DNA of 64,000 nucleotides from assembly GCA_964565925.1 (NCBI GenBank), contig CAZMGV010000006.1:128997-192996 (forward strand), read 5' to 3'. The notes under the pieces are model-generated. The model ran no database searches, was not told the DNA's origin, and saw only the letters and a program-made list of their open reading frames with translations. The first letter of the stretch is position 1. The number at the start of each line of letters is the position of its first letter. The position numbers were made by a program, and so were the translations under genes. Below, piece by piece: positions 329 to 50,779 of the stretch. The stretch comes from an uncultured bacterium. GTDB taxonomy: Bacteria > JAGRBM01 > JAHCIT01.

Positions 329-1012
329 TCAGGGCTTGTCGGTCTGCACCGGAGCGTCGGTTTTCTGGCTGTCCGGACAGTCGCTCACGCTGCCGTCGTC
401 GTCGAACACGGCCACGCAGGTCTCCCGGGAGACCGGCTTCAGCTGGGCCGGCGGTGTTTCTTCGCCCAGGATTTTCCCGATGACGGTCAGCATCTGCTGC
501 TCGCGGTAGCCGATCGACGCACTGTCTCCGGCGCCCTTGATCTGCTGGACCGGCACGACGTCGATGAGCACCGGCTTGGGCTGGTCGGAATAGGGGACGA
601 TCCGGAGCGCCGGAATAGAGATCTGCTCGCGCACGTAGACGTGAACCCGGGTCTTGCCCGAGGCGGTTTTCGTGCAGGTCAGATGGACCGTGTAGGCCGA
701 GTGTGCGGGGTGCCTGAGATCCGGTTTCGAGTCGGTCCAGCCGACCCGGAAGACGTTGAGACTGTCGGCGTTCACGGGCTGTGTGCGGACAAAACAGGCC
801 GCCTTGTCGGTGAACGCGACGGGCAGCGTCTCGGTGGCGACGAGCATCGCCTGCCAGACCGCGTCCGGCTGGGCGGCGAACTCCCGGTCGGCGGCCCACA
901 GCCCGCGGTCGTATTCGGCGTACGACCGGATGTAGTTGGAGCATCCGGCGGACCCGGCAAGCGCGACGGAAAGCGTGGCGGCGAGGAGCAGGGATCGGAT
1001 CGGGTTCGGCAT
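329..1012 (-). CDS. Putative lipoprotein (hypothetical)
   Basis: 227-aa ORF. N-terminal signal peptide with lipobox (LAGSAGC). It is the last gene of the HK-RR operon on the minus strand. Confidence 0.5.
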   Translation of the reverse strand: MPNPIRSLLLAATLSVALAGSAGCSNYIRSYAEYDRGLWAADREFAAQPDAVWQAMLVATETLPVAFTDKAACFVRTQPVNADSLNVFRVGWTDSKPDLRHPAHSAYTVHLTCTKTASGKTRVHVYVREQISIPALRIVPYSDQPKPVLIDVVPVQQIKGAGDSASIGYREQQMLTVIGKILGEETPPAQLKPVSRETCVAVFDDDGSVSDCPDSQKTDAPVQTDKP

Positions 1013-1046
1013 GGCTGTCTCCGTAAGGTTCGTTCCGTCTGGGGGA

Positions 1047-2435
1047 TCAGGCGCTCTTCAGGATTCCGTACTCTTTGAGCTTGCGCCACAGGGTGTTGCG
1101 GCCGATCCCGAGCCGCCTGGCCGTCTCCACCTGGTTGTGGTCGCACGCGTTGTAGGCATTCAAGATATGGGCCCGTTCCGCGTCGGCGAGCGGCACCACC
1201 TGCTCGGGCGACTCGGCCGACGGGATCACGCCGCTGCGGTCCCGGGGCGTCACCGGTTCGCCGTCGTCATCCACGTCGACGCCGATCTCGGAGGGCAGGT
1301 CGGTCAGATGGAGTATGTCCGAGTCGGACAGCACGGCCGCATGGCGGATCGCGTTCTCAAGCTCGCGGATGTTGCCCGGCCACGAATAGCCCACGAGCGC
1401 TTCCAGCGCGTCTTCCGAAATCGCCGCCTGCGGGGACTTGCGTTCCCTGAGCCAGAACTGCTGGGCGAGCTGGCGGACGTCGTCCCGCCGTTCGCGAAGC
1501 GACGGCAGCATGATCTCGATCACCCGGAGCCGGTAGTAAAGATCCTCGCGAAACCGGCCCTCCGTCACCATGGTTTTCAGGTTCTGGTGGGTGGCCGCGA
1601 TCAGCCGCGCGTCCACCTTGATCGTGCGGTTGTCGCCCACGCGGCGGATCTCGTGTTCCTGCAGTACGCGCAGCAGTTTCACCTGCAGCGGCAGCGGCAT
1701 GTCACCGATCTCGTCCAGGAAAATGGTCCCCTTGTCGGCTTCCTCGAACAACCCCTTCTTCGTGGTGACGGCGCCGGTGAAGGCGCCCTTCACGTGGCCG
1801 AACAGCTCGCTCTCGATCAGCTCCGCCGGCACGGCGCCGCAGTTGATCGGAACGAAGGGGAACTCGGCCCGCGAGGAGTTGGCGTGAATCGCCCGGGCGA
1901 ACAGTTCCTTTCCGGTGCCCGAATCGCCCAGCAGCAGCACCGCCTCCTGCGACCCGGAGACGCGCTGGGCCAGGTCGATCGCCTTCTTCATGGGCGCCGA
2001 GCTGCCGATGATATGCTCGAACCCCTTGCGCAGACCCACCTGGTTCTTGAGACGCGTCACCTGAGTGAGCAGCGAGTGACGGTTCAAGGCCAGGTTCACG
2101 ACCTTGTTCAGGTCTTCGGGCTTCACGGGCTTCGTGAGAAAATCGAACGCCCCCATCTTCATCGCCTCGACGGCGAGCCCGATCGTCCCTTCGCCGGTCA
2201 GCAGGATCACTTCGACCGGGTATTTCTGTTCTTCCACCTTTTTGAGCACGTCGAGCCCCGTGAGCGGCTCCATGCGGTAGTCGGTGACGACGACTTCCGG
2301 CACCTGCTCCTCGATCACCCTGAGCGCGGCCTCGCCGTCGGAGGCGGTCGTGACGTCATGACCCGCCTTTTTCAGGAAGATGGTGAGCGCGAGCAGACTC
2401 GACGGCTCGTCGTCTACGAGGAGAATGTGGGCCAC
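1047..2435 (-). CDS. Sigma-54-dependent response regulator (NtrC family: REC + AAA+ sigma-54 activator + Fis-type HTH)
   Basis: N-terminal receiver (LLVDDE...TDYRMEP), GDSGTGKE Walker A, GAFTGA motif, ESELFGH, and a C-terminal HTH ([19 protein letters not shown]). Confidence 0.9.
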
Positions 2436-4784: not shown

Positions 4785-5327
4785 ATGAAAACGCTCAAGA
4801 TCACAAGCTGGATTGCAGGTGGAATGATGGCAGCGGCCATGACCGGATGCGCAGGCCCGGTGCTGATCGGCACGATGGTGGCCCCGACGGTCGCCTCGGT
4901 GAGTGCGGTGGCGATGGCCGCCGAAACCGGCCGCGTCGCCTCGCAGACCAAATGGTACGACGGCAACGACCTCGACACGAACCCGGAAGCGGTCCGCCTG
5001 GCGAAGCTCGAAGACGCCGCCCGCGACATCGAGGCCCGCACCGGCATCAAGGTCAGCCCGGTTGAAGTCGACGTGCTGACGAAACTCTACGAAGCCCGCA
5101 GCGCGGACCTGGGCACCTTCGCCAGGGACCGCCGCCTGACCCGCGCCCAGATCGACGACGCCGTGAAGACGCTGCGCGAAAAAGGACTGGTCAGCGTTGT
5201 GAACAAGCCCGGCCGCGCCGGTGGCTACGAAGTGACCGGCACGATGAAGTTCGCCGGCCTGGGCAACCCGCTGGAACTGGGCCGCGAAGAGACCCCGCCG
5301 GTCTACGCAATGAACGAGACGCGCTGA
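4785..5327 (+). CDS. Putative lipoprotein (hypothetical)
   Basis: 180-aa ORF with signal peptide and lipobox (AMTGCAG). A GGGGGCAGG RBS lies 6 nt upstream. Confidence 0.5.
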   Translation: MKTLKITSWIAGGMMAAAMTGCAGPVLIGTMVAPTVASVSAVAMAAETGRVASQTKWYDGNDLDTNPEAVRLAKLEDAARDIEARTGIKVSPVEVDVLTKLYEARSADLGTFARDRRLTRAQIDDAVKTLREKGLVSVVNKPGRAGGYEVTGTMKFAGLGNPLELGREETPPVYAMNETR

Positions 5328-5371
5328 ACGGCACGCACTGAATAACCGCTTTCCTTCCTCCCCCTTTCCCC

Positions 5372-5407
5372 TGAAGCCCCCGGCGCAACGACCGGGGGCT
5401 TCGCTTT
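5372..5407 (+). terminator. Rho-independent terminator-like hairpin followed by T-run
   Basis: GCCCCCGGCGCAACGACCGGGGGC stem-loop followed by TTCGCTTTT, downstream of the lipoprotein gene. Confidence 0.5.
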
Positions 5408-5548
5408 TGGGGGCGGAAAACCAGATGAAGTGCTCGCGTGGTGTCACCCCGAGCGAAGCCGAGGGGTCTCCTGATTAGAAAAGAGACCCCTCCGCTACGC
5501 GCTGTCGCGCTCCGGTCGGGGTGACATGAATGTATTTTACAGAGCCGC

Positions 5549-6214
5549 TTACCTGAACGGATTTTCCTTCAGCGCCGCCTCGGCCTGCCGTTTCACGGCC
5601 GGATCGGCTGAGTCCAGTGCCGAGAGGTTCTCCGGCAGTTTCTCCAGGTAGCCGATCCCGTGTTTCAGTTTCGCCAGCGATTTTTCGGCGGCGGCGATCT
5701 CCGTAGCCGAGTGATTGTTCTTTTTGCGGGCCTCGTCGATGGATTTCTGGGTCTGATCCGCGCGCGCCCGGTACACCTTCAGGAAGTAGTCGCGCTTTTT
5801 GAGCAGCAGCTCCTGCTGCGCCCGCGGAAGTTGGGGAAGCTCAGGAGTTTTCACGTCCACGGACGGAACGTCTGGCAGGGAAGGCAGCGCGTCTTGCAGC
5901 TCCCGTACGCCGCTCTCGACGCTGGCGGGCACCGGCCCCAGCGCCTTGCGGACGCCCTTCTCGGCCTCGGTCCAGTCGATATCGTCGGCGCCCCACGCGT
6001 CCCAGATGAGCCGCGTCTCGGGGTGTTTCCACGGAGCGTATTTCGTCACCAGCCGGCGGCTCCACTCCGGCGCCCGGTCGCCGAGGCGCCAGTAGAGCAG
6101 CGCCGCACCGCCCAGCAGCACCAGACAGACGACGGTCACGTAGAACCGGATCCGCCAGAACCACTCGAAGAAGCCTTTTGGGTTGCCGGCTTTTTTAGGA
6201 GAGCGGGGAGGCAT
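5549..6214 (-). CDS. Membrane-anchored hypothetical protein (N-terminal TM helix, coiled-coil-like C-terminus)
   Basis: Starts at the internal ATG (MPPRSPKK...). The longer ORF upstream of it lacks support and would overlap the radical SAM gene. TM segment FYVTVVCLVLLGGAALLYW. The gene follows the radical SAM gene by about 20 nt on the same strand. Confidence 0.5.
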   Translation of the reverse strand: MPPRSPKKAGNPKGFFEWFWRIRFYVTVVCLVLLGGAALLYWRLGDRAPEWSRRLVTKYAPWKHPETRLIWDAWGADDIDWTEAEKGVRKALGPVPASVESGVRELQDALPSLPDVPSVDVKTPELPQLPRAQQELLLKKRDYFLKVYRARADQTQKSIDEARKKNNHSATEIAAAEKSLAKLKHGIGYLEKLPENLSALDSADPAVKRQAEAALKENPFR

Positions 6215-6234
6215 GAATGGAGCGTAACACGTTC

Positions 6235-7356
6235 TTACGCGCTCAACTGCTTGCCGTACGCGGGCGCCTTCACCGGCACGAGACCGCCGGACCAGAAGCC
6301 CGGCACGGGTTTTTTGCACGACGGGCAGGAGCCGTCCCCGCCCAGGCGGTTCTCCAGCACCCTGAAGCCGGTGCGCCGGATGACCGTCTCGCCGCAGTGG
6401 TGGCAGCGGGTGTCCTCCCAGCTGCCGACCTTGCCGGGCAGGTTGCCCGGGTAGATGTATTTGAGGCCCGCCTGCACGGCGATCTCCGCCGCGCGGATCA
6501 GGTGCCTGGGACCGGTGTAGCTGTGGTCCTGCATTTTGTAGTCGGGATGATACGCCGTCACATGCCACGGGATGAGCGGCGAGACGCTGGCAATAAAATT
6601 AGTCAGCCCTTTCAGCTCTTCGTCCGAATCGTTCCAGCCGGGTACCAGCAGCGTGACGATCTCGACCCAGAACCCCCGGTCGACGAGGTTCTGGATCGTT
6701 TCCAGAATCGGGTCGAGCTTCGCGCCGAGCTGGCGGTAGTTCTCCTGCGAAAAGGCTTTGAGGTCCACCTTGTAGATGTCGCAGTGGGGTTTCAGGAAAT
6801 CCAGCACCTCGGGCGTCGCGTTGCCGTTCGACACGAACCCGGTGGCGAGGCCTTTCTTGCGGGCGGCCTTGAACACATCCACGGCCCATTCGGCCGTGAT
6901 CAGCGGTTCGTTGTAGGTGGAGACGACGATCTTCGACCCCTCGCGGACCGCGAGATTGGCGATAATGTCCGGCGTGACCTCTTCGGGCACGATGCCGGCG
7001 ACCGGGTCGCGCAGCGCCTGGGACGTCACCCAGTTCTGGCAGTAGCCGCACTTGAGGTCGCAGCCCAGCATGCCGAACGACAGGGCCTTTGCGCCGGGGA
7101 ATGCGTGGAAGTAAGGCTTCTTCTCGATCGGGTCGTTCTGGATCCCGGCCGAGTAGCCGTAGGGCACATGGAGCTTGCCGCCCTCCATGAACCGCACCTT
7201 GCAGACGCCGTTCATGCCTTCTTTCAGGATGCACCGGTGGCCGCAGGCGAGACACCGCAGCCGGTCGTGGCTCTCCGGCCGGACCAGCGTGGAGTCCGGG
7301 CGGGAAAGCCGCTTCAGCGTCTGTTCAAGGGTCTCTGGTGTAGTGGACGGTCCCAT
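6235..7356 (-). CDS. Radical SAM enzyme, AmmeMemoRadiSam-system type (PFL-activase-like)
   Basis: N-terminal Cys cluster (CLACGHRC...GVCKVR), the DPIEKKPYFHAFPG motif characteristic of this family, and radical-SAM CxxxCxxC (GCDLKCGYCQNW). Confidence 0.85.
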   Translation of the reverse strand: MGPSTTPETLEQTLKRLSRPDSTLVRPESHDRLRCLACGHRCILKEGMNGVCKVRFMEGGKLHVPYGYSAGIQNDPIEKKPYFHAFPGAKALSFGMLGCDLKCGYCQNWVTSQALRDPVAGIVPEEVTPDIIANLAVREGSKIVVSTYNEPLITAEWAVDVFKAARKKGLATGFVSNGNATPEVLDFLKPHCDIYKVDLKAFSQENYRQLGAKLDPILETIQNLVDRGFWVEIVTLLVPGWNDSDEELKGLTNFIASVSPLIPWHVTAYHPDYKMQDHSYTGPRHLIRAAEIAVQAGLKYIYPGNLPGKVGSWEDTRCHHCGETVIRRTGFRVLENRLGGDGSCPSCKKPVPGFWSGGLVPVKAPAYGKQLSA

Positions 7357-7448
7357 AGCCCTTTGAGAATAACCATCTTCGGGGCGGGGGGAAGGGAAAT
7401 CTGAACGGGGTTAATGTGGAGGGAGATTTGCGATGAAACTGGTACGAC

Positions 7449-8222
7449 TTAATTTCCGTTCGGCACCCTCGCCGCACTCCAGGTCCCGCGGCGCAGTCCG
7501 GGGGCGAGGGTGATCCAGGTCCCGGCGAGCAGGGCCGAATCATCGTTCAGGGTGGCTTCGATGGTTCCCGCAAAGCCGTCGCCGGTCCGCGCGCGCCACA
7601 GATAACCCGTGGATCCGCCGGTATGAGCGATATTAGCCGGCTCGCCGAACACCGGCACCGACTGTCGCGGTCCGCCGAAAACACCGTGAAGAGTTCCGTC
7701 GGCGGCAATGACGACGCCGATCACACCGGCGGAATCCCCGTCGACCGCTCCCAGGTATACCGAACTGCCGGTGACGGACGCACCGCTCAAGGCACCGGAG
7801 CGCAAAATTTCGGGGTGCTTTCCGGCGGCGGCATTGTCGCTGATCTCTCCGGTAACGATTCCGGCGGACGTAATCTCGCCGGTGGCCGATATCTGCGAAC
7901 CGTCAGCCGTCAATACGAACGATCGTCCGGCGGCGGTACCGGAAAGGCGGTAACTGGTCTCTTCGCCGGATGGGGAGCGGGCCGTCAGGGTGCCCGAAAG
8001 AATACCGTCCGCGCCGACGTCGAACGATCCGCTCGCCAGAGACCAGTCTCCGTCCGGACCGCCCAGGCTGGACCGGCCCGAAAGAGTTGCCACGAATGCG
8101 TAAGAGGCCGGGGCGGAACCGGCAGGGAGGTCCGCCCGGGCCGAAATCGCGAAAAGGGCAAACAGGAGCGCCAGACCGGCTCCCGGGAGCGTAATCGGCC
8201 GCCGGATTTTTGCTCTCCCCAT
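7449..8222 (-). CDS. Secreted Gly/Ser/Thr-rich hypothetical protein
   Basis: Starts at the internal Met with a classic signal peptide (MGRAKIRRPITLPGAGLALLFALFAISARA). Low-complexity G/S/T/A-rich mature region. Confidence 0.5.
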   Translation of the reverse strand: MGRAKIRRPITLPGAGLALLFALFAISARADLPAGSAPASYAFVATLSGRSSLGGPDGDWSLASGSFDVGADGILSGTLTARSPSGEETSYRLSGTAAGRSFVLTADGSQISATGEITSAGIVTGEISDNAAAGKHPEILRSGALSGASVTGSSVYLGAVDGDSAGVIGVVIAADGTLHGVFGGPRQSVPVFGEPANIAHTGGSTGYLWRARTGDGFAGTIEATLNDDSALLAGTWITLAPGLRRGTWSAARVPNGN

Positions 8223-8361
8223 CGCGAACTCCCGAATCCTGTTTCCCAAAAGAGTATCACCGTCTCCGAAACCGGCGTGTGATACGTCTCCCGCAGGGCG
8301 ACAAAAAACGGGCGGCCCGAGAGCCGCCCGTTTGATGTTGAACAATCCGGCGCGCGGTTAT

Positions 8362-8412
8362 TTCTTCGCGGCCTTCGCCTTCTTTTCCCCAAGCCTTTCG
8401 GCGATGGCGGCC
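8362..8412. repeat. 51-bp direct repeat, copy A (duplicate of ppdK 3' end)
   Basis: TTCTTCGCGGCCTTCGCCTTCTTTTCCCCAAGCCTTTCGGCGATGGCGGCC is identical to 9197-9247. On the minus strand it reads ...AAIAERLGEKKAKAAKK-stop, the ppdK C-terminus. Confidence 0.85.
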
Positions 8413-8413
8413 C

Positions 8414-8810
8414 TCACCGCCCGGCAAATGCTTTGAGCCGTGCAGCGATCTCCGCCTTGTCGGAGAGGCGTCCCTCAGCCACGGCAATGGTGAGGTCGTA
8501 CAGTTCGTCGTCGGAAGCCGACAGACGGATTCCGTTCAATCCCAGAAAAACAGTTGCACAGAGGAGTCCCGCCCGTTTGTTGCCATCCACGAACGGGTGG
8601 TTCTTTACGATGTGAAACAGGTAGGCCGCGGCCATCAGGTACAGGTCGCCATGGACGTATTCGCCACCGAAGGAAGCCTCGGGCTGCGCCAGCGCGGATT
8701 CGAGCAGCCCACGGTCGCGGATGCCGTCAGCGCCGCCGAACCGGGAAAGCTGCCGGGCATGAAGCCTGAGGGCGAGATCGAGGCTGATGAAGCGGAAGTT
8801 CAACGGGCAA
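8414..8810 (-). CDS. doc: Type II toxin, Doc/Fic (death-on-curing) family
   Basis: HPFVDGNKRAG Fic/Doc motif. N-terminus ...ISLDLALRLHARQLSRFGGADGIRDRGLLESALAQP is typical of Doc. Probable TTG start overlaps the antitoxin stop. Confidence 0.8.
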
Positions 8811-9033
8811 GTTTTTTGAAAGCCGATTCGTGCCGGTCCATGATTTCGTCGGCGATCTTGAGCGCCTCGTCTTCCATGGACTGCTGCCGCTGAACGACGA
8901 TCAGACGGCCGCCGGTTTCCTCGACGTCCAGAGCGGTTCCGGGTTTGGCATTGAGGGCGTCGAGCACCGGACCTGTCAGCATGACTGCCGGGCCTTCCCG
9001 AGTCTCGATGATTTTCGCCTTGATCGTCGCCAT
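8800..9033 (-). CDS. Antitoxin, AbrB/MazE/Phd-like (SpoVT-AbrB fold)
   Basis: 77-aa ORF immediately upstream of and overlapping the Doc toxin, in the same orientation. Small acidic C-terminus typical of antitoxins. Confidence 0.65.
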   Translation of the reverse strand: MATIKAKIIETREGPAVMLTGPVLDALNAKPGTALDVEETGGRLIVVQRQQSMEDEALKIADEIMDRHESAFKKLAR

Positions 9034-9192
9034 GGTCCGCTCCGGAGCCTCTGCTCCCGTAACAGCAAGAATAGCACAACCGGGCGGGAGAGGGATATGG
9101 GCAGTATGGCCTGGCCGGAACAGCCGGACTGGCCCGCCCCGGCAGGGGCGGAGGTTAGTCCAGACGCTTGCGGCGCGTCCGTTCCGCGTTTT

Positions 9193-11991
9193 CTACTTCT
9201 TCGCGGCCTTCGCCTTCTTTTCCCCAAGCCTTTCGGCGATGGCGGCCTGCGCCGCGGCGAGCCGGGCGATCGGCACGCGGAAGGGCGAACAGCTGACGTA
9301 GTCGAGTCCCAGCCGGTGGCAGAACTTGACCGACTCGGGATCGCCGCCGTGCTCGCCGCAGATGCCGAGCTTGATGCCGGGACGCACGCTGCGGCCCAGC
9401 TCCGAGGCGATCTTCATCAGCTTGCCCACGCCCGGCTGGTCGATCGTGACGAACGGGTCGGCCTTGTAGAGATTGCTCTCCAGATAGGCCGGCAGGAACC
9501 GCCCCGCGTCGTCGCGCGAGAGCCCCATGGTCGTCTGGGTGAGATCATTGGTGCCGAACGAGAAAAACTCCGCCTCTTTCGCGATCTCGTCGGCGACAAT
9601 CGCCGCGCGCGGCAGCTCGATCATCGTGCCGACCAGGAACGGGATCCGTGTGCCCTTCTCGCGGTTCACCTCGTGGGCCACGTCGATCACGTTCTTCTTC
9701 AGCATGGCGAACTCGCCCGCGTCGGAGATAATCGGGAGCATGATCTCGGGCGTGACTTTGAGGCCTTCTTCCTTCAGCAGATCCACGGCGGCTTCGATCA
9801 CCGCGCGGGTCTGCATGTTGAAGATCTCCGGGTACACCACCGCGAGGCGCGAGCCGCGGAAGCCCAGCATCGGGTTGAACTCGTGCAGGCTCTCCACCTT
9901 CGCCTTGATGCGGGAGAACGGCTCGCCCAGCTCCTTGGCGAGCAGTTCCATCTCGGCGTCCGTGTGGGGCAGGAATTCATGGAGCGGCGGGTCCAGGAAA
10001 CGGATCGTCACGGGATACGGCGCCATGGCGCGGAAAATCCCCTTGAAGTCGCCCTTCTGCATGGGGAGCAGCTTGGCCAGCGCGTTCTCGCGCGCCTGCC
10101 GGTCGTCGGCGAGGATCATCTCGCGCATGGCGAGAATCCGGTCCGCCTGGAAGAACATATGTTCCGTGCGGCACAGGCCGATCCCCTCCGCGCCGAAGCG
10201 GCGCGCCTGGTCGGAATCGGCCGGGGTGTCGGCGTTGGTGCGGACCTTGAGGCGCCGCTCCTTGTCGACAAATTTCATGAACGCATGGAAGTCGGCCGAG
10301 AGTTCGGGCTCCATCGTCTCGAGCTTGCCGAGGATCACCTCGCCCGTGGAGCCGTTGAGCGACAGCCAGTCGCCTTCCTTCACCACGACTTCCTTGCCGT
10401 TTGCACGCGCGATGAACTGCATCTTTGCATAGTCGATTTCGATGGCCGAGCAGCCGGCCACGCAGCACTTGCCCATGCCGCGCGCCACCACCGCCGCGTG
10501 CGAGGTGCGGCCGCCGCGGGCGGTCAGGATTCCTTCCGACACCGTCATGCCGCCGATGTCCTCCGGCGACGTCTCGATGCGGACCAGGATGACCGGTTCG
10601 CCCAGATCCTTCTGGTGCTGGGCGTCGGCGGCCGAGAACACCACCTTGCCGACGGCGGCGCCGGGGGAGGCATTGAGCCCCTTGGCGATCACCTTCTTTT
10701 CCGCCTTCGGGTCGAACCGCCGGTGGAGCAGGTGGTCCAGCTGTTCCGGGTGCACGCGGAGCACCGCCTCGGCCGGCGTGATCAGTTTTTCGCGCGCCAT
10801 GTCCACGGCGATCTTGATCGCCGCCTGCGCCGTGCGCTTACCGTTGCGGGTCTGGAGCATGTAGAGACGGCCGTGTTCGATGGTGAACTCGATGTCCTGC
10901 ATGTCGCGGTAGTGCTTTTCGAGCTTCTGGTAGATCCTGACCAGTTCCTTGTACGCCTTCGGCATCACCTCTTCGAGGGACACCTGGTCGGCGCTCTCCT
11001 TGCCGGCGATGTTAATGGGCTCCGGCGTGCGGATACCCGCCACCACGTCCTCGCCCTGCGCGTTCACGAGGTATTCGCCGAAGAACCGGCGGTCGCCGTT
11101 CGACGGGTCGCGTGTGAACGCGACGCCCGTGGCGCAGTCGTCCCCCAGGTTGCCGAACACCATCGACTGCACGTTCACGGCGGTGCCGCCGGCGGCCGAA
11201 ATGTTGTTGAGCTTGCGGTAGATCTTCGCGCGGTCGTTCTCCCACGAGTTGAACACGGCGCTGATCGCGCCCCAGAGCTGCTCCTCGGGGTCGGTGGGGA
11301 AATGGTTGCCCGTGCGGTCCACGACCAGCCGCTTGAACCGCTCCACCAGCTCCTGCAGGTCGGAGATGTCCAGCTCCACGTCGAGCTTCACCTTGCGCTT
11401 GTGCTTGATGTCCTCGATGATCAGCTCGAACGGGTCGGCTTCCTTGTCGGACTGGGGCTTCATGCCCATCACCACGTCGCCGTACATCTGCACGAAACGC
11501 CGGTAGCTGTCCCACGCAAAGCGCGGGTTGCCCGAGTCGCTCGCGAGCCCCTCGACCGTCCTGTCCGAGAGCCCCAGGTTCAGGACGGTATCCATCATGC
11601 CCGGCATGGAGTCGCGCGCGCCCGAGCGTACGGAAAACAGCAGCGGTCTGGACGTCGAGCCGAAGCCGCGGCCCATGATCGCTTCCACACGCGCCACGGC
11701 GGAGGCCACCTGCCTGTTCAGTTCCTTGGGGTAGCGGCGTCCGTTGGCGTAGTACCAGCTGCAGACGGCGGTCGTGATCGTGAACCCCGGCGGCACCGGC
11801 AGGCCGAGGTTCATCATCTCGGCAAGCCCCGCGCCCTTGCCGCCCAGCAGTTCCTTCATGTCGCCACGGCCGTCGGCCTTGCCGTTGCCGAAGAAGTAGA
11901 CGAGCTGCGACGTTTTGGACGCGCCCTTGGCGGCGGCAGGTTTGGCGGCGGCTTTCTTCTGGGAGGCGGGTTTTTTCATGCCAGTCTTCAT
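9193..11991 (-). CDS. ppdK: Pyruvate, phosphate dikinase
   Basis: 932-aa protein with full-length PPDK similarity (LLGGKGAGLAEM ... GGRTSHAAVVARGMGKCCVAGC ... CGEHGGDP). Lys/Ala-rich N-terminal extension. Confidence 0.95.
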   Translation of the reverse strand: MKTGMKKPASQKKAAAKPAAAKGASKTSQLVYFFGNGKADGRGDMKELLGGKGAGLAEMMNLGLPVPPGFTITTAVCSWYYANGRRYPKELNRQVASAVARVEAIMGRGFGSTSRPLLFSVRSGARDSMPGMMDTVLNLGLSDRTVEGLASDSGNPRFAWDSYRRFVQMYGDVVMGMKPQSDKEADPFELIIEDIKHKRKVKLDVELDISDLQELVERFKRLVVDRTGNHFPTDPEEQLWGAISAVFNSWENDRAKIYRKLNNISAAGGTAVNVQSMVFGNLGDDCATGVAFTRDPSNGDRRFFGEYLVNAQGEDVVAGIRTPEPINIAGKESADQVSLEEVMPKAYKELVRIYQKLEKHYRDMQDIEFTIEHGRLYMLQTRNGKRTAQAAIKIAVDMAREKLITPAEAVLRVHPEQLDHLLHRRFDPKAEKKVIAKGLNASPGAAVGKVVFSAADAQHQKDLGEPVILVRIETSPEDIGGMTVSEGILTARGGRTSHAAVVARGMGKCCVAGCSAIEIDYAKMQFIARANGKEVVVKEGDWLSLNGSTGEVILGKLETMEPELSADFHAFMKFVDKERRLKVRTNADTPADSDQARRFGAEGIGLCRTEHMFFQADRILAMREMILADDRQARENALAKLLPMQKGDFKGIFRAMAPYPVTIRFLDPPLHEFLPHTDAEMELLAKELGEPFSRIKAKVESLHEFNPMLGFRGSRLAVVYPEIFNMQTRAVIEAAVDLLKEEGLKVTPEIMLPIISDAGEFAMLKKNVIDVAHEVNREKGTRIPFLVGTMIELPRAAIVADEIAKEAEFFSFGTNDLTQTTMGLSRDDAGRFLPAYLESNLYKADPFVTIDQPGVGKLMKIASELGRSVRPGIKLGICGEHGGDPESVKFCHRLGLDYVSCSPFRVPIARLAAAQAAIAERLGEKKAKAAKK
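9197..9247. repeat. 51-bp direct repeat, copy B (native 3' end of ppdK)
   Basis: Identical to 8362-8412. Lies inside the ppdK coding sequence. Confidence 0.85.
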
Positions 11992-13340: not shown

Positions 13341-13532
13341 CGTTACCTTGAAGCAGATTGCGCCCCCGTTCGCCCCCTGAAAGGGCCGGTCCGCGCGCCG
13401 CTAAAAAGCGGCCCTGTATCTGCCCCGAAGGGGCAGCAGAATCAAGGGGTTGGGCGAATCGGGGCCTGGGGCCCGGGAGGGGGTGGGAGAATACCCCCTT
13501 CCTGGACTGTGGTTTCCGAAATTCGCTAAGCT

Positions 13533-16500
13533 TTGCAGCAACTTAAGCAGATGAAACTTTATCCGGGATTATATGATCAATTGCTGACAAAGCAGTTGGA
13601 AGCGGAGGCGCTCGAACAGGGTTTCGATCTGCGCCTACGAGAGCTAGACAGTTCTTCTGCTCATGTCGTAATCGGCCAATATCTTGAAAGATTGCTCGCC
13701 CGTGCACTTTCAGTAATCCCCGAAGCGGATAGACCGGCGGCGCAGGTCACGTTAGCGAACGAAATTATTCGTTGGCTGTTGTCGAAGAAGCAGGATGGAC
13801 TTGTCGACGGAGACATTATCTCCGAAAAATCGACGCTCTTGGCGTCGGTCTCGGACGACAAGCCACCTTTGAGTGCTGAAGATTGTCCCCTGATTCCACT
13901 TAATACGTCGGAGCTGTTCGTCAACGGACGCAATGAACCTCGACTGGGAGAAGAGCTTCGTCGAGAGATTTTATCTGCAGACCGAATCGATTTACTGTGC
14001 GCGTTCGTCAAATGGTACGGATTGCGCGTTATTGAGGAACCACTCGCTGAATTTTTGCGAAGCGGCCGTGAACTCCGCCTGATCACAACGACCTATATGG
14101 GTGCCACAGAGCAAAAGCCGCTGGATTGGCTTTTTCAGCGAGACGCCAAAATAAAGGTATCATATGAGACGGAATCAACTCGTCTGCATGCCAAGGCGTG
14201 GCTGTTTCACAGAAATAGTGGCTCATCCACCGCGTATATTGGCAGTTCGAACTTATCGTATGCGGCTTTACTCGATGGCGTCGAATGGAACGTTCGGCTT
14301 TCGCAGCAAACATTGGGACCCGTCCTGAATAAGTTTCAGGCGACCTTCGACACTTACTGGAACGATACGCGGTACGAACTCTATGACGCTAAAAGATTCG
14401 CGCAGGCGACTGCGCGCGATCTTCAAGATAAGACGACTGAAATTAGCTTTCGATTGCTCGACGTCGATCCACGGCCCCATCAAAGGGAAATTCTCGATGC
14501 ACTCGAAGTTGAACGGTATCGTCACGGTCGTTGGAAGAATCTAGTTGTTGCTGCCACAGGTACCGGCAAGACGGTAATTGCAGCTCTGGACTACCGGCGT
14601 CTTCGTGAACAATTACCGCGTGCCAATTTGCTGTTTGTTGCTCATCGAAAAGAGATTCTTACTCAAAGCCTCAGAATGTTCCGAGACGTATTGCGTGACG
14701 GCTCGTTTGGAGAGCTTTACGTTGACGGAAAACGGCCTGAACAGTGGTCCAATGTATTTGCTTCAATTCAGTCGTTGACAGCCCAATCTATCGACCGCAT
14801 TGATCCACATCACTTTGATGTTCTTATCGTTGACGAGTTCCATCACGCGGCAGCGAAATCATACGAAACGTTACTAAATAGGCTTAGGCCCAAAGTCCTT
14901 TTGGGCCTTACGGCGACGCCAGAACGGGGCGATGGTGAAAGCATCCTTCATTGGTTCGACGATCGTATTGCCGCTGAATTAAGAATCTGGGACGCGCTGG
15001 AACAAGATCTTCTCATCCCATTTCAATACTTTGGGATTCACGATGATGTGGACTTAGAAAAATTGTCATGGAAACGAGGCGGTTACGATCTCTCAGAACT
15101 GAGCAATCTGTATACGAATAACGACAGTCGGGTCGCCAAAATTCTACAGCAAATGGCTCGCATCGTACCGAATGTCGCAAAAATGAAAGCGCTCGGATTT
15201 TGTGTGAGCATTGATCACGCGAAGTTCATGGCGAAGAAGTTTTCAGAAGCCGGCGTTCCCTCAGTGGCGATCGTTTCGGAAGGCTCTTCGGCAAATAGAG
15301 ATGAGGCAATTGCTGATCTCAAGCGCAGAGATGGAAAGATTCGGACGATCTTTTGCGTCGATATTTTCAACGAAGGTGTAGATATACCAGCGGTTGATAC
15401 CGTCTTGATGTTGCGTCCAACCGAAAGTCCAACGGTGTTTCTGCAGCAACTCGGACGAGGGTTACGTCGGCATCCTGAAAAGGCGTGCTTAACGGTTTTG
15501 GATTTCATTGGAAACCAAAATCGAAAGTTTCGGTTTGATCAAAGATTCTCAGCGTTGATTGGGTGTAAGCGTAGAGACGTTGCCGAACATGTTGAGCAGG
15601 GTTTCCCGTTTTTGCCTGCTGGTTGCCATATCGATCTTGACCGAGATGTTTCTCGAATTGTCCTCGAAAATCTTAAGCAGACTATAGAAACCAAGAACAG
15701 GTTGGTACAAGAACTTAAAGATATTGGTGATGTCTCATTGCTCGAATTTATCCGGAAAAGTGGGGTCGATGTTGAGGACATCTATCGGAGCAATCGAAAT
15801 TATAGGATTCTTCGACAGTTGGCTGGCTTCCCAACGGAGCCTGATGGTGAATTCGAAGATGAACTGGGCCGTTCGATTGGCCGCCTTCTACATAACGACG
15901 ATGTAGTTCGAGTGGGGCTCTATCGGAAAATACTGTCCGAAAAATCACCACCCAAGGTAAATACGTTCTCAAAAACGGAGCGCCGGTCACTTCATATGCT
16001 TCACTTCATGCTTTGGGGCGTGAAGCGAAAATGGCCGTCTATTGATGAAGCATTCGTGACTCTGTGGAAGCACAAAAACGTATTGAAGGAACTGAGTGAA
16101 CTGTTCGAATTGCTAGACGAGAAGGCTGAGATTCTGACAAAGCCACTTCCGGAGTTGAGCGAAAGTCCGATCCAACTTTATGGACGATATGACCGCGCGG
16201 AAATTCGTGCCGCTTTTGATAGGCTCGACGTCGAAAAGCCGTATGCCCATCAAGAAGGTTGTGAATGGATTGAATCGTTTAACGCAGATATCTTTTTTGT
16301 GACCCTTAGAAAGAATGAAAAAGGCTTTACGGCGACGACTCTTTATAACGACTTCGCGGTTAGTCCGGAAGAATTTCATTGGGAGTCGCAATCACGCACG
16401 GCGGAGAAGAGCCCAACAGGGCAACGATATATCCACCACGCGAAACGCGGTAGTCGGATATTGTTATTCGTCAGGGAAACAAAGACGGACCCTTTCGTTG

Positions 16501-16619
16501 CGCTTGGCCCTGCGGAATACGTGAGTCACGAATCCGAACGGCCCATGAAGATTATCTGGAAGATGAAGTACCCGATTCCTGAATTCCTCTTGAAGTCGGC
16601 GACCGTCGTCGCGGCGTAA
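13533..16619 (+). CDS. PLD/HKD-like nuclease - SF2 (ResIII/DEAH) helicase - DUF3427-like fusion protein (candidate restriction/defence protein)
   Basis: 1028 aa. HKD-like motif RLHAKAWLFH...GSSN (about aa 219-240). Walker A AATGTGKT (about aa 340-347). DEFH box (about aa 434-437). Helicase motif VI QQLGRGLRR. About 300-aa C-terminal region resembling DUF3427. The gene is visibly lower-GC than its flanks. Confidence 0.85.
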   Translation: MQQLKQMKLYPGLYDQLLTKQLEAEALEQGFDLRLRELDSSSAHVVIGQYLERLLARALSVIPEADRPAAQVTLANEIIRWLLSKKQDGLVDGDIISEKSTLLASVSDDKPPLSAEDCPLIPLNTSELFVNGRNEPRLGEELRREILSADRIDLLCAFVKWYGLRVIEEPLAEFLRSGRELRLITTTYMGATEQKPLDWLFQRDAKIKVSYETESTRLHAKAWLFHRNSGSSTAYIGSSNLSYAALLDGVEWNVRLSQQTLGPVLNKFQATFDTYWNDTRYELYDAKRFAQATARDLQDKTTEISFRLLDVDPRPHQREILDALEVERYRHGRWKNLVVAATGTGKTVIAALDYRRLREQLPRANLLFVAHRKEILTQSLRMFRDVLRDGSFGELYVDGKRPEQWSNVFASIQSLTAQSIDRIDPHHFDVLIVDEFHHAAAKSYETLLNRLRPKVLLGLTATPERGDGESILHWFDDRIAAELRIWDALEQDLLIPFQYFGIHDDVDLEKLSWKRGGYDLSELSNLYTNNDSRVAKILQQMARIVPNVAKMKALGFCVSIDHAKFMAKKFSEAGVPSVAIVSEGSSANRDEAIADLKRRDGKIRTIFCVDIFNEGVDIPAVDTVLMLRPTESPTVFLQQLGRGLRRHPEKACLTVLDFIGNQNRKFRFDQRFSALIGCKRRDVAEHVEQGFPFLPAGCHIDLDRDVSRIVLENLKQTIETKNRLVQELKDIGDVSLLEFIRKSGVDVEDIYRSNRNYRILRQLAGFPTEPDGEFEDELGRSIGRLLHNDDVVRVGLYRKILSEKSPPKVNTFSKTERRSLHMLHFMLWGVKRKWPSIDEAFVTLWKHKNVLKELSELFELLDEKAEILTKPLPELSESPIQLYGRYDRAEIRAAFDRLDVEKPYAHQEGCEWIESFNADIFFVTLRKNEKGFTATTLYNDFAVSPEEFHWESQSRTAEKSPTGQRYIHHAKRGSRILLFVRETKTDPFVALGPAEYVSHESERPMKIIWKMKYPIPEFLLKSATVVAA

Positions 16620-16735
16620 GTCCGTCCTGGCCAGGCGGACTCATCTGGTCAACCACTCTCGTTAAAATTCGATTCCATTTTTACTGGACGCCCCCGGACC
16701 GCCTGGGCAGGGTCGGACTGGTAGGAGCAATAGCT

Positions 16736-16999
16736 ATGAACGCCGTCCGAATAACGCTGCAGCCGTCCGACTGGCAGATGTTGCTCGATCACCTCGATTC
16801 CTTGCGCGACGGCTACGAGCGCACAGTTATGTATTACCAAAGCGTCGGCACCGTCGAAGAGATCGGCATGGTCAGCGGCGACGTGAATAACGAAGAGGAA
16901 GCGTTAGTCGCCTTCAACTATTGCGGCTATTTGATTGAGTCGATCCGCCAGCAGATCGCCATACAAGACGGCCAAGAGTATGAGCTGAGAAGCGAATAA
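16736..16999 (+). CDS. Small hypothetical protein (87 aa) downstream of helicase-nuclease gene
   Basis: ORF with GGAGCAATAGCT-ATG RBS. Intermediate GC. No recognisable motif. Confidence 0.35.
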   Translation: MNAVRITLQPSDWQMLLDHLDSLRDGYERTVMYYQSVGTVEEIGMVSGDVNNEEEALVAFNYCGYLIESIRQQIAIQDGQEYELRSE

Positions 17000-17154
17000 C
17001 CCCCGTTCAAACCCTTCGATCCATTCGAGACGCGCATATGGTTCGACGGCGCTCACCACGAACGGCGCTCCTCAGGGCGAACGGGAGTGCCCCGAAGCGG
17101 CGGGTGAGTCCAGTACATAACATAAACGTCAACCTCCGCTTTTTAATAAAACCC

Positions 17155-17178
17155 CCCAAATGGCCCTAAATGACCCAA
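17155..17178. repeat. Left arm of ~22-bp inverted repeat (CCAAATGGCCCTAAATGACCCAAG)
   Basis: Reverse complement of 17420-17443 (CTTGGGTCATTTAGGGCCATTTGG-like). Confidence 0.7.
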
Positions 17179-17400
17179 GCCCGATTCCTGGGCAACATGG
17201 GCTAACCCCGCGCCGGCGCTCGGGAATCCGGCAGATTCCAAAACTTGTGTCACGTTAATCAAAAAATATTTTGGCGGCTGTTAAGGGGGTCGGCTCCGGC
17301 GGGGAAATCCGGAGATTCCGCTGCGTGATCCGCAAGTTGGACCGTCAGAATTAAGGCCTTAACTACCGTCGCTAGATTCTCAAAAAACCGTGCGCGCTTG

Positions 17401-17443
17401 GGTCATTTAGGCTCGTTTAGGGTCATTTAGGGCCATTTAGGTT
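17401..17443. repeat. Four tandem 10-bp repeats (GGYCRTTTAG, period 10 bp) forming the right arm of the inverted repeat
   Basis: GGTCATTTAG / GCTCGTTTAG / GGTCATTTAG / GGCCATTTAG at 17401-17440. The units are one helical turn apart. Confidence 0.7.
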
Positions 17444-17801
17444 CACCCCCTTACGTCGCCCCATTTCGCTCGCTAACAATAGTCACATGGGAAATCCGTA
17501 CTCCATACCCGCCGACCTCAGGGACGACCCGTCCGCTTACCGGGATGACTACCCGGTCTCTTCTACGGGCGGTGTTACGGCCGGTACGGTCGTCCCGTTC
17601 CCTTCGCCGCAGGGCAGCGCGAGGCAGAGCTATAACGGCGCGTTCGCGAGCGGCCGGCGGTGGGTGCGAGCGCGGGTCAATGTGGAACCCGAGTGGTCGA
17701 GCCCCCGTGTGGCTGGAAAAATCTGGAACTGCGCGACGGCCCGCACGATTGTCTCACCCGTCGAGCGCGACACGGTGAGCCGGGCGGTGGGGGGACTGTT
17801 C

Positions 17802-17859
17802 GGGGGGATTCGGCCCCCCTGCGATCCCTCCCGGGATCGCGTCCCCCCGAATAGGGGGG
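17802..17859. repeat. Three consecutive perfect GC-rich hairpins
   Basis: GGGGGG-ATTCGG-CCCCCC (17802-17819). GCGATCCC-TCCC-GGGATCGC (17821-17840). CCCCCC-GAATA-GGGGGG (17843-17859). Confidence 0.5.
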
Positions 17860-18030
17860 ACAAATCCGCGGGACTGACTACCCGTGGAACCGGTCAGCCG
17901 GGCGAGTGTTCTCCCCCTCGACGGGGGAGACCCTCCGGAGTTTTACCGCAGGAGGGTGGGGGTGCGGAGTTGGTTCCCGCTTTGCCCGCTCCCGCCCCGC
18001 ACGCTATGGGGGCTGGCGGAGGGTCTACCC

Positions 18031-19044
18031 ATGCCGAACAAGACGGTTCTGGTGACGGGCGCCAGCGGGTTCATCGGGAGCCATCTCACGGAGCAGCTTC
18101 TGGAGAAGGGCCACGAGGTGCGCACGATCGTGCGCCGGCCGGAGACGCTGGGCCGGTATTCGTTCTCGAAGCACCCCAACTTCCGGGCGTTCACGGGCGA
18201 CCTGCTGGACCCGGCGACCTTCCAGGCGGCCTGCGAGGGCGTGGAGCAGGTGTACCATCTGGCCGGGATCATCTCGACGAAAAACGGCGAACGCCGGAAG
18301 CTGTTCGATATGAACGTGAAGGGGACGGTCAACCTGTTTGGCACGCTCAAGCGCACGAAGCCCGGAAAGATCGTCTACCTCGCGTCGATTTTCGCGCTGG
18401 CTCAAGGCGAGAAAACCCGCCCGGCGACGGAGGAGAGTTTCTACAACCTGGAGGGGGTGCGGGTGGACTACTTCGACTCCAAGCGGGCGGCGCAGCTGGA
18501 GGTCGAGAAGTTCGAGATGGACGGCCTGCCGGTGACCTACGTGTACCCGGGTTTCTGCTACGGGCCTGGCGATATCTACGTCTCCAGCTCGGTGTTTATC
18601 CTCAGCTTTCTGCGCGGCGAGCTGCCGGTGCTGATGGAGGGCGGGCAGAACGTGCTCGACGTGCGGGACTGCGCGAAGGGGCTGATACTGGGGATGGAGA
18701 AGGGCCGCGTCGGGCAGAAGTATCTGATCGGCGACCACAACATCACCTTCAAGGAGCTGGCCGACACGCTCGCCAGAGTGACCGGCAAGAAGGCGCCGGG
18801 CGTGGTGCTCCCCCGGTTCGTGACGGTGGGCCTTGGCACGGTGGCCGAGCGGCTGATGCCGAAATTTCCGCTCAACCGCCAGTCGGCCGAGGCGGCCAGC
18901 CACTACTGGTACTACGACACCGGCAAGGCGCGCTCGGAGCTGGGCTACACGGGCCGCCCGCTGGAGGAAACCCTGCGGGACGCCGTGAGCTGGTTCAAGG
19001 CCAACGGCTACGACCGCCGCGGGTTCTATCCGCCGGTCCACTAG
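18031..19044 (+). CDS. NAD-dependent epimerase/dehydratase family protein (extended SDR)
   Basis: Starts at the internal Met with a Rossmann motif (VLVTGASGFIGSHL). YxxxK-type catalytic region. About 337 aa. Confidence 0.85.
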   Translation: MPNKTVLVTGASGFIGSHLTEQLLEKGHEVRTIVRRPETLGRYSFSKHPNFRAFTGDLLDPATFQAACEGVEQVYHLAGIISTKNGERRKLFDMNVKGTVNLFGTLKRTKPGKIVYLASIFALAQGEKTRPATEESFYNLEGVRVDYFDSKRAAQLEVEKFEMDGLPVTYVYPGFCYGPGDIYVSSSVFILSFLRGELPVLMEGGQNVLDVRDCAKGLILGMEKGRVGQKYLIGDHNITFKELADTLARVTGKKAPGVVLPRFVTVGLGTVAERLMPKFPLNRQSAEAASHYWYYDTGKARSELGYTGRPLEETLRDAVSWFKANGYDRRGFYPPVH

Positions 19045-19101
19045 GCGGTACATTGACGGTTCATTGAAACACGTTCGCAAAACCGGCCGGAGGCCGCTAG
19101 G

Positions 19102-49028: not shown

Positions 49029-50447
49029 TTGACGTCCGGTGGACTCTGGAACCGGAACGCGGCGGATCGTGTGGCCCGTATCCTCGTCGTCGATGACGAT
49101 CCCAACTTCCTGAAACTCGTAACCGAGCATTTGCGCGCCGACGGCCACGAAACCGTCACGGCCTCGAACGGTATCGAAGGTCTTTCGCGCTACACACCGG
49201 AAATCGACTGCGTCGTTTCCGACGTCCAGATGCCCGAGATGGACGGCCTCGAACTGCTCCAGTCGCTGCGCGAGCGAAACCCCGCGCTGCCGGTCATCAT
49301 GCTCACCGCGCAGACAACCGCCGACGCCGCCGTTCAGGCGCTCCGTCACGGCGCACGCGATTACATATTCAAGACAGACCTGCAGCGGCTCCCCACGACC
49401 GTTAAAAACGCAGTCTCGCACCGGCGGCTCGAAAACCGCGTGGACCAGCTCGAATCGGCGGCACGGGAAAAATTTTCGCTGCGGAACATCGTCGGCCGTT
49501 CGTCCCAGATGAACGCCGTCTTCGAGGCGCTCGAGCGCGTCGTGTCGTCGAACGTGACCGTGCTCGTGCAGGGGGAAAGCGGCACCGGCAAGGAACTGCT
49601 CGCCAAGGCCATTCACTTCAATTCGGCGCGGTCAAAAGGACCGTTCATCGCTATTAACTGCGCGGCGATTCCGGAAAACCTGATCGAGAGCGAGCTGTTC
49701 GGCCACGAGAAAGGCGCCTTCACCGGCGCCGTCAACCGCCGTATCGGCCGCATAGAGCAGGCCAACGGAGGCACGCTGTTCCTGGACGAGATCGGCGAAA
49801 TGAACCTGAACCTTCAGGCCAAGTTGCTGCGCGTGCTCCAGGAGCGAACGCTGGAGCGCGTGGGCGGTTCCGATACCGTGAAGGTGGATGTGCGCGTGGT
49901 GGCGGCGACCCACCGGCGGCTGGACGAAATGGTCCGTGCCGGACAGTTCCGCGAGGATCTCTTTTACCGGCTCAACGTTTTTCCGATCCGGATCCCGCCG
50001 CTCCGGGAACGGCGTGACGACGTCGTGCCGCTGGCGGAGCATTTTCTCGCCAAGTTCAACCGCGAGGAGGGCCGGACGCTGAAAGGTTTCTCGCCCGATG
50101 CGACCGAGATCCTTCTCAGCCACAACTATCCGGGCAACGTCCGCGAACTGGAAAATCTCGTCTACCGGACGGCACTGCTCTCCAGAAGCGAATGGATCGG
50201 CGCCCAGGATGTACCGCCGTTCGGTTCGGCGGGAGCGGAAACCCCGGTTCAACCCGCCGTCCACGCGGCCGGTACCGGCGCCCAGTGGAGCCGCGAGCAG
50301 TTTCCCAAACTGGTGGATCTGGAAAAAACTGCCTGTCAGAAAGCGCTCGATCTGGCGGAAGGGAACGTTACCGAAGCGGCCGATCTGCTCGGTATTGGCA
50401 AGGCGACGCTCTACCGCAAGATCAAGGAATATGAACTGAAAGCCTGA
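49029..50447 (+). CDS. Sigma-54-dependent response regulator (PilR-like)
   Basis: REC ([10 protein letters not shown]...), [21 protein letters not shown], and a C-terminal HTH. The start is either TTG 49029 or GTG 49071. Confidence 0.85.
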
Positions 50448-50676: not shown

Positions 50677-50779
50677 CTAAGGACTCCCCAGTGGATGTTA
50701 ACCGATTGACCAGGTTTGCCTAATGGTGGGCGATCCGTCTCAAACGGAAGATCAAAAGAAAGTTCAAGGAAGGACTCAA

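Follow-up and report, generated by a model that had tools for sequence, protein, structure and literature searches.

An orphan foldback repeat built of 10-bp units, possibly a MITE-like insertion, next to a small conserved gene in an apparent defence hotspot

The Correia elements of Neisseria, the RUP elements of Streptococcus pneumoniae and ERIC are non-coding, intergenic repeats of less than 400 bp, with ~25-bp inverted ends around an AT-richer core and the capacity to form a hairpin. The ends of Mu, Tn7, Tn402 (TniA) and IS21 consist of several phased transposase sites. Here we analyse a repeat tract at 17000-17486 of a 64-kb stretch of chromosomal DNA from an uncultured bacterium (contig CAZMGV010000006.1; the whole stretch is called the window). 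A module within this tract has the same general build as Correia, RUP and ERIC: two inverted arms, here made of a 10-bp unit, enclose a short non-coding core in the spacer between a low-GC island and a small conserved gene. Our preferred reading, held tentatively, is that the module is an orphan, probably inert foldback insertion resembling a miniature inverted-repeat transposable element (MITE), whose arms would be docking DNA with several sites for a protein. Insertion, protein binding and inertness are all three what we infer from the sequence and its comparison with other genomes.

The original prediction had picked out 17000-17486 as free of open reading frames (ORFs) of 60 aa or more, which the ORF listing confirmed; ORFs in the module are all 39 aa or shorter, and no small toxin-like ORF within the tract was convincing. 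The four tandem 10-bp units that it had placed at 17401-17440 are likewise there, head to tail (GGTCATTTAG, GCTCGTTTAG, GGTCATTTAG, GGCCATTTAG), and the consensus of the unit is GGG(T/G/A)CATTT(A/G), also written GGNCATTTAG or GGGNCATTTA. The reverse-complement copy ~240 bp upstream (CCAAATGGCCCTAAATGACCCAAG) is real too and lies one base to the right of its predicted position, at 17156-17179; two reverse-complement units fill 17156-17175, and a third, degenerate one extends this left arm to ~17147. The arms pair in two registers. The outer one, recovered by repeat search and blastn, covers 22 nt at 95% (17155-17176 / 17420-17441) and includes a perfect 19-mer (17158-17176 / 17420-17438); the inner one is a perfect 16-mer, CCTAAATGACCCAAGC (17165-17180 / 17396-17411). 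Read from the outer end inwards, both arms run AAATGGCCC-TAAATGACCC-AAGC and diverge after AAGC, and the right arm differs from the left only by one additional 20-bp double unit. Arms of 24-26 bp and an AT-richer core of 215 bp make up a non-coding foldback module of 286 bp (~17156-17441), with inverted terminal repeats around short non-coding DNA as in a MITE. Predicted folds pair both arms (z = -3.1 on the plus strand, -2.8 on the minus strand).

We counted perfect inverted repeats with arms of at least 14 nt, 20-400 bp apart, in the window and in block shuffles. The arm pair is the sole such repeat in 64 kb, against 0.22 per shuffled window at k=14 and 0.03 at k=16. The array has the window's top tandem-repeat score in Tandem Repeats Finder (TRF; 51 at period 10 and 64 at period 20, with 2.3 copies). 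With up to 2 mismatches the unit occurs eight times in the window; because this equals the chance total, the non-random feature is its clustering, with 6/8 matches inside the tract, and not its count. The internal direct repeats that had been reported ~70 bp apart are present at a spacing of 80 bp (GGGAATCCGGCAGATTCC, 17222-17239, and GGGAAATCCGGAGATTCC, 17302-17319; 78% match). Each is an imperfect palindrome, the motif is not above chance in the window, and no copy of this palindromic core repeat was found in any fetched locus.

The tract was correctly described as non-coding, but on its right it borders on a small gene at 17487 and not on ordinary intergenic DNA. The ATG lies 47 nt past the end of the array, and the same frame stays open until 19067. 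This long ORF (17487-19067) is not a single gene, because public contigs identical to the window have the start of the epimerase gene at 18031; the real gap between annotated genes is ~1 kb. A full HMMER scan of 1.84 billion representative proteins with the 181-aa translation of 17487-18029 returned five homologous small proteins (E 1e-16 to 7e-5), which are 77-227 aa long with variable arginine-rich tails. The block common to the family is SGRRWV..(R)PEPEW..PR..GR(I/V)(W/F)...S(P/D)(V/I)ERDTVSRA(V/L)G.LF.G, represented in the window by SGRRWV..PEPEW..PR..GR.W...SPVERDTVSRAVG.LFGG. Compared with the homologue in locus L099, 27/52 residues are identical, and 14 of these use different, synonymous codons; the SPVERDTVSRAVG stretch has six third-position changes with zero amino-acid replacement, and both other frames are interrupted by stops. 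Since the codon changes are synonymous and the other frames contain stops, we conclude that the conserved block is protein-coding. The gene belongs to no Pfam or PHROG family, its family was not found in viral contigs, and an AlphaFold2 model of its product is uninformative (pLDDT 56). Frames +1 and +2 stop at ~17875 and ~17852, and a 1-nt indel in one of the G6 or C6 runs (a true one or an error of assembly) would leave a product of 122-130 aa, similar to the homologues. If the 45-bp spacer between the array and the ATG acts as a promoter, the transcript would be leaderless.

DNA was fetched around two of the homologues, L099 and L100 (a contig from the JGI metagenomes). The L100 locus consists of the end of an MmeI-type restriction-modification gene, a REP-like motif, ~85 nt of spacer and the small ORF; in L099, low-GC DNA without ORFs precedes the small ORF, again with no array ahead of it. 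The REP-like motif, GGGTGCCCCGRMGGGGCGGGTGAGTCC, has one match in the window (17085-17111, with 2 mismatches and 0 expected by chance) and three in L100 (1286-1312, 1913-1939 and the contig end), which lie around the homologous small ORF; its local alignment score of 35 was reached by 0/300 shuffles. The distance from the motif to the small ORF is ~85 nt in L100 versus 375 nt in the window, and a MAFFT alignment leaves a gap of ~330 nt in L100 opposite 17112-17440 of the window. Because both homologues have a much shorter, array-free upstream spacer, the module looks like inserted DNA. In all three genomes the small gene stands at the inner edge of defence cassettes. Separately, the REP-like motif in L100 is preceded by a hairpin (CCCTCTCTATTTATAGAGAGGG), and the motif appears to be lineage-specific, common to the window and L100.

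We favour a foldback insertion because the ~25-bp arms end identically, the core is non-coding and AT-richer, the module can form a hairpin, its spacer turns over fast, and it is absent from two homologous contexts. On this reading, two inverted arms of 10-bp sub-repeats enclosing the 215-bp core would have been added to the spacer between the last island gene and the small gene, outside the conserved layout, and one arm would later have grown by a 20-bp tandem duplication. The phased units could dock several copies of one DNA-binding protein of the transposase or recombinase type, which would be encoded elsewhere or have been lost. With no partner nearby and no detectable copy, the module is probably an inert orphan now, and its sole present effect is likely to be incidental, namely to put a bent array rich in repeats at positions ~-46 to -86 relative to the small gene.

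Several points weigh against an insertion of this kind. Flank similarity outside the REP-like motif is not significant, and the empty-site comparison uses distant homologues (43-52% protein identity); since the flank alignments beyond the motif are not significant, the comparison is suggestive of insertion and not proof of it. A clean target-site duplication is not visible: ACCCCC is present to the left (17151-17156) and to the right (17446-17451), its right copy stands 4-5 nt from the arm, and the pair may be a chance occurrence. A local duplication-inversion could produce the same picture without mobility. The additional MITE or iteron copies that had been predicted were found neither in the window nor in GTDB representatives, JGI metagenomes or IMG/VR. 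The 64-kb window holds no second copy of the arms; a generic unit pattern matched by both arms gave 71 loci among 185,579 GTDB species-representative genomes (a collection that does not include the window's own genome), none with flanks homologous to the window; and the arm-specific pattern GCTTGGGTCATTTAGGNNCNTTT, queried in IMG/VR and the JGI metagenomes, had 0 matches. Only one locus, L005, has the GGTCATTTAGGGCCATTT pair in common with the window, and its flanks are unrelated. Neither the neighbours of the module nor the window ORFs that were scanned (part of a total of ~54) include a gene for a transposase, integrase or invertase. The arms also point outward, the sole outward case, whereas inverted pairs of the unit in Bacteroidota point inward. 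Set against these points, two ends of a MITE-like element remain the best-fitting of the options first put forward, with arms of 24-26 bp and extra DNA relative to two contexts, and without a further copy.

The 10-bp unit has a distribution of its own. The 71 GTDB-representative loci fall into three groups, namely Bacteroidota arrays, short true arrays and probable chance matches, of which we calculate that ~35 would be expected from the size of the collection. Genomes of Saprospiraceae and Chitinophagales contain dozens of long arrays, in many copies per genome and with up to 19 units. Their inverted pairs stand between gene ends, with arrays 15-590 bp apart that point inward in 26/26 pairs, and they either point to a ~110-bp conserved palindromic core (AACGTGGGTTGTCATCCAGAGCG..., AACGTGGGTTGTCATCCAGAGCGCAGCGAAGGACC...) or abut directly. 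As far as could be found, this foldback repeat family has not been described. The window has neither its core sequence nor its inward polarity. Examples of such pairs, built of 10-11-bp GGGTCATTTA arrays, are L066 3330-3700, L033 4480-4940 and L017 3380-3615, and there are 23 more.

Short true arrays are intergenic, with 3-5 units of GGGACATTTA or GGGTCATTTA, and occur in Caldilineaceae, Dehalococcoidia, Tepidisphaeraceae, Myxococcota, Trinickia (between rpsU and dnaG), Verrucomicrobia, Clostridia, Veillonella, a Bathyarchaeote and Sphingobacterium. In viral contigs the unit pattern was found in three independent lineages, all of them with real arrays. The GGGACATTTA phage arrays (L081-L086) include one of ~50 units between divergent genes (L084 9252-9750, on a 70-kb contig of 32% GC), at least five units at the start of locus L086, and, in a lineage of Veillonella phages, three units. 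Nine loci matched three composition-matched control patterns; none of them was an array of the control's own unit, and one had a related GGTCACTTT array. Because arrays of the 10-bp unit recur across phyla and phages and the control units have none of their own, the unit is not arbitrary. Together with the inverted Bacteroidota pairs, these arrays show the unit behaving like element DNA outside the window, a point in favour of the foldback reading.

Arrays in these genomes vary freely in length and period and keep no consistent position or orientation relative to gene starts; the 79 ORFs within 3 kb of arrays at 28 other loci have no Pfam family in common, and no integrase is among the 25 of 133 families listed. 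Nor are arrays enriched near defence genes, since the PADLOC matches are mostly housekeeping look-alikes such as dnaG. A literature search with the repeat sequence returned only matches to the ITS1F primer. One locus stands apart: L007, from a metagenome-assembled genome (MAG) of Desulfarculaceae, has two unit arrays on its minus strand (6900-7480), each after a tRNA-like 3' fragment. The degenerate tRNA scores 23 bits (E = 0.037) with an array within ~70 nt, a conserved stretch of ~65 nt follows each array, and the neighbours are an IS3-type transposase fragment and a HigB/HigA pair, an arrangement that resembles stacked integration junctions.

A real, conserved coding sequence 47 nt past the array, and units that stand exactly 10 bp apart in one orientation towards it, would suit a different role for the tract, as promoter and operator of the small gene. 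The array would then be a set of tandem half-sites for a winged-helix regulator of the OmpR/PhoB type, with the inverted pair 236 bp upstream as a looping site. We consider this unlikely, if worth keeping in view. The unit appears similar to known direct-repeat boxes (GTCAT in Pho boxes, GnnAC in OmpR half-sites), and the weak -10-like hexamer ~7 nt before the ATG with a poor -35 might be read as an activator-dependent promoter. However, a consensus scan of 16500-18300 found no sigma-70-type promoter (nor a terminator consensus in the tract), and no sigma-54 match in the spacer was convincing. Winged-helix regulators are missing from the neighbourhood: the adjacent response regulator has a PatA_N domain and not a DNA-binding output, and the regulators among ten further ORFs are a sigma-54 activator, an ECF sigma factor and a GntR fusion. 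Arrays elsewhere take no consistent place relative to gene starts, and because the L099 and L100 homologues have none upstream, the array is not a conserved control element of the small-gene family. Of the traits of an OmpR/PhoB operator, the locus thus has the 10-bp spacing, without upstream conservation or a nearby regulator of the Trans_reg_C type.

It is rather improbable, in our estimate, that the tract was never mobile and has no function, having arisen by slippage and duplication-inversion (template switching) in the decaying spacer of a hotspot. Such an origin would account for a tract that is unique, not conserved and set in strain-specific DNA, for units that are already diverging (GCTCGTTTAG, GGCCATTTGG), and for the way arrays elsewhere vary in length and period like slippage-prone minisatellites. 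It fits poorly with a perfect inverted 19-nt copy 240 bp away, which is not a product of slippage, with the same extra AAGC at the ends of both arms, and with the recurrence of unit arrays across phyla and phages, unlike the three control units.

The geometry of the tract also recalls lambda attP, with two versus four inverted sites ~240 bp apart, an AT-richer middle and a 12-bp palindrome, and it lies where variable cassette DNA meets a semi-conserved flank. A site-specific recombination site, either attP-like or an inverton, would let a remote recombinase exchange cassettes or flip the 215-bp core. The array behind a degenerate tRNA in L007, with insertion sequence (IS) fragments and HigBA, is what a typical integration junction looks like and would lend this some weight. 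We nevertheless judge it distinctly unlikely. No tyrosine or serine recombinase is encoded beside the tract or among the window ORFs scanned, the window contains no tRNA, tRNA fragment or tmRNA, and no copy of arm or core is found at the other island edge (13.3-13.6 kb); the same absences of integrase, tRNA and second arm copy leave little of the attachment scar that had been suggested. The genes around the 28 other array loci show neither a shared family nor, among the families listed, an integrase. Two inverted clusters of ~10-bp sites around an AT-rich core are present, and alone they do not define the attP family; an adjacent integrase and a core duplicated at the island ends are not. For an inverton, the consensus scan found no promoter inside the module, and no invertase is encoded beside the tract or among the ORFs scanned.

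Short-read assemblies bear on the same question. Contigs from SRR14271333 and SRR14271334 are 100% identical to the window, and both end at 17178 and restart at 17916, so that the 737 bp between these positions are missing from the gene-bearing contigs of both samples. Identical breaks in two samples would fit structural heterogeneity in the population, as recombination predicts; the break at 17178, however, matches neither inversion register (predicted at 17176 or 17180). A left arm that varies in copy number by 20 bp could account for this break, as could noise from repeats and homopolymers. Candidate causes of the breaks are thus heterogeneity in repeat copy number, homopolymers and other copies in the community.

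A structured non-coding RNA (a small RNA, a long leader or a defence RNA) with the arms as its long-range stem would be in keeping with the arm pairing in the predicted folds and with the defence-island setting, and we regard it as improbable. Because z is the same on both strands, the pairing reflects a DNA inverted repeat and not a strand-specific RNA. At gathering thresholds Rfam had 0 matches in the window or in four related loci, and a relaxed search (E <=10) of 16600-18100 gave chance-level matches only, a single one of them in the module. There is also no promoter or terminator consensus, no homologue for covariation, and no reverse transcriptase or toxin partner of the sort that retron- or ToxI-like RNAs need.

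More speculatively, the 10-bp unit might be the recognition site of an unrecognised but widespread DNA-binding or recombination system (at least eight phyla, and phages), with the window pair as an active docking or recombination site that helps the hotspot to exchange cassettes and the small gene as part of the junction machinery; we see this as a long shot. Least probable of all is an iteron origin or a partition site, both of which the original prediction had also suggested, here taken as the plasmid-style remnant of an integrated replicon: an A/T-richer segment between tandem repeats and a partial inverted copy of them recalls one, whereas typical iterons are 17-22 bp long, in at least three copies beside a rep gene, and here the units are 10 bp (or 20 bp in ~2.3 copies), the setting is chromosomal with housekeeping genes in the flanks, the island has no rep, par or relaxase gene (its only genes are the restriction enzyme and an 87-aa ORF), and blastn of 17000-18030 against PLSDB (72,556 plasmid records) and INPHARED (50,697 phage records) found no similarity.

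The tract indeed sits at the edge, the inner one, of a low-GC island (GC 0.46-0.51, versus ~0.63 for the window), as had been proposed; the island was acquired horizontally. Three relatives were fetched, with epimerases 79-83% identical to that of the window. The proposed alignment of orthologous loci located the island junctions: nucleotide homology with all three ends at 13319 or 13454 and restarts at 18035. Because it breaks off there, we take ~13455-18030 (4.6 kb, tract included) to be a strain-specific insert; the relatives lack it and have other defence genes in its place (Table 1). The junction between glyQS and the epimerase gene is a hotspot that gathers defence genes in this lineage. 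The 690-bp gap before the epimerase in L075 has no homology to the tract, and L075 and L099 have other modules in common with each other and none with the window.

The island enzyme is a PLD-helicase-DUF3427 protein of 1022-1028 aa that matches the PADLOC model of a type IV methyl-directed restriction enzyme (4.5e-265). We also considered that the tract had hitch-hiked with this enzyme from a low-GC donor, and rejected this: the closest enzyme homologues, in Polyangium and a deltaproteobacterial MAG, are 56% identical, and their flanks do not contain the tract. Directly behind the enzyme gene is an acidic 87-aa ORF (16736-16999, plus strand), with a GC content at third codon positions of 0.75 versus 0.49 for the enzyme. 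It has no Pfam or PADLOC match and no tblastn match in the fetched loci; its product may play an accessory or anti-restriction-like role. The genes to the left of the island are ppdK and glyQS; those to its right encode the epimerase, a PatA_N response regulator and an MshEN protein, with galU, holA and rpsT after them. No rep, integrase, transposase, invertase or winged-helix regulator gene stands beside the tract, and the same holds for integrase, transposase, invertase, rep and par genes among the ten further window ORFs compared with Pfam, all of which have housekeeping or regulatory functions.

Other observations concern the wider locus. Upstream of the epimerase gene, 17760-18030 forms a hairpin cluster (-162.3 kcal/mol, z = -4.1, with 0/200 shuffles as stable), for which Rfam gave only sub-threshold matches (whalefall-1-like hairpins) and which may be REP-like or a structured leader. 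Relatives have a module of a different sort, in which a GC-rich structured stretch comes after a strong sigma-70-like promoter (TTGATA-17 nt-TATACT or TAGACT), at L075 9526-9568 and 9818-9976, L099 1175-1353 and 1422-1464, and L100 ~2090-2330. This module, which the window does not contain, lies either ahead of the epimerase gene or behind the small ORF; Rfam has no match for it, and it could be an unknown non-coding RNA. The second low-GC dip of the window is due to a pilin region (49029-51353), in which a low-GC gap separates a gene for a PilR-like sigma-54-dependent response regulator (49029-50447) from a type IV pilin gene (50781-51353) behind it; the gap contains a GG-N10-GC sequence that looks like a sigma-54-type promoter. 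Just downstream of ppdK, a Fic/Doc-family protein is encoded on the minus strand (8414-9079), probably the toxin of a toxin-antitoxin pair.

Table 1. Positions of features in and around the repeat tract (window coordinates) and content of the corresponding interval in three relatives (coordinates of each locus)
Feature	Position	Strand	Basis or remark
REP-like GC-rich motif GAGTGCCCCGAAGCGGCGGGTGAGTCC	17085..17111	+	outside the foldback module; left landmark in the spacer after the island genes
Left arm: two minus-strand units GGTCATTTAG, GGCCATTTGG, then CAAGC on the inner side	17156..17180	-	sequence; inverted repeats; 19-mer and 16-mer
Core, 215 bp, GC ~0.5-0.56, without coding capacity or Rfam match	17181..17395	.	
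A/T stretch in core	~17240-17275		
12-bp palindrome TTAAGGCCTTAA in core	17351-17362		self-match
Right arm: GCTTG, then four tandem 10-bp units	17396..17441	+	repeat spacing 10, 10; TRF
Spacer from array to ATG, 45 bp; weak -10-like AACAAT at 17475-17480; no recognisable -35 or Shine-Dalgarno	17442..17486	+	
Small protein-coding gene; conserved block ~17616-17860	17487..17860	+	homologues; synonymous codon changes
GC-rich hairpin cluster between the conserved block of the small gene and the epimerase start	17780..18030	+	fold of 17760-18030
L075 interval: Abi_alpha, MvaI/BcnI restriction enzyme, Vsr, C5 methyltransferase, 690-bp gap	4946-10016		
L079 interval: HNH_2 protein and cyclase-like protein	418-2156		
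L080 interval: no insert; dnaK directly abuts the epimerase			

The by-products of this analysis (the hotspot, an unannotated small gene and a recurrent 10-bp unit) are of more use than the tract itself, which is at present a curiosity, namely an orphan foldback repeat within the spacer of a defence hotspot. With a different cassette in each relative, the junction between glyQS and the epimerase gene is a natural place to seek new defence genes. The unit, for which no binding protein is known, forms arrays in unrelated bacteria and in phages, and in Bacteroidota these keep a strict polarity; if the unit is the site of a shared mobile-element protein, it would offer a handle on how hotspots are serviced.

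Compared with described systems, the module agrees with Correia, RUP and ERIC in the build outlined at the outset. Those families have tens to hundreds of copies, target-site duplications and usually a related IS, whereas the window module is seen in one copy, without a clean duplication or a partner transposase, and, unlike theirs, its arms are arrays of a 10-bp unit. The ends of Mu, Tn7, Tn402 (TniA) and IS21 appear similar in having repeated head-to-tail sites that are inverted between the ends and unequal in number (2-3 versus 4 in the window); they differ in their ~19-22-bp sites, the kilobases of genes between the ends and the 5'-TG...CA-3' termini, which the window does not have. Operators of the OmpR/PhoB type likewise consist of head-to-tail repeats with a spacing of one helical turn, just ahead of a poor -35, but the window array has no known cognate regulator and is not conserved upstream of homologous genes, and a second cluster lies inverted 236 bp away. 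Lambda attP (P1, P2 / P'1-P'3) has the same inverted clusters of ~10-bp sites ~240 bp apart around an AT-rich centre, one cluster being a tight tandem triplet or quadruplet; in contrast, no integrase or excisionase gene was found at the window tract, which has no core shared with a bacterial attachment site or tRNA and no attL/attR pair at the bounds of the island. The arrays of Saprospiraceae and Chitinophagales are inward-pointing, long and multicopy, whereas the window pair is outward-pointing, short and single-copy, without the ~110-bp core. What the window and these arrays have in common is the unit itself and its arrangement as two inverted arrays.

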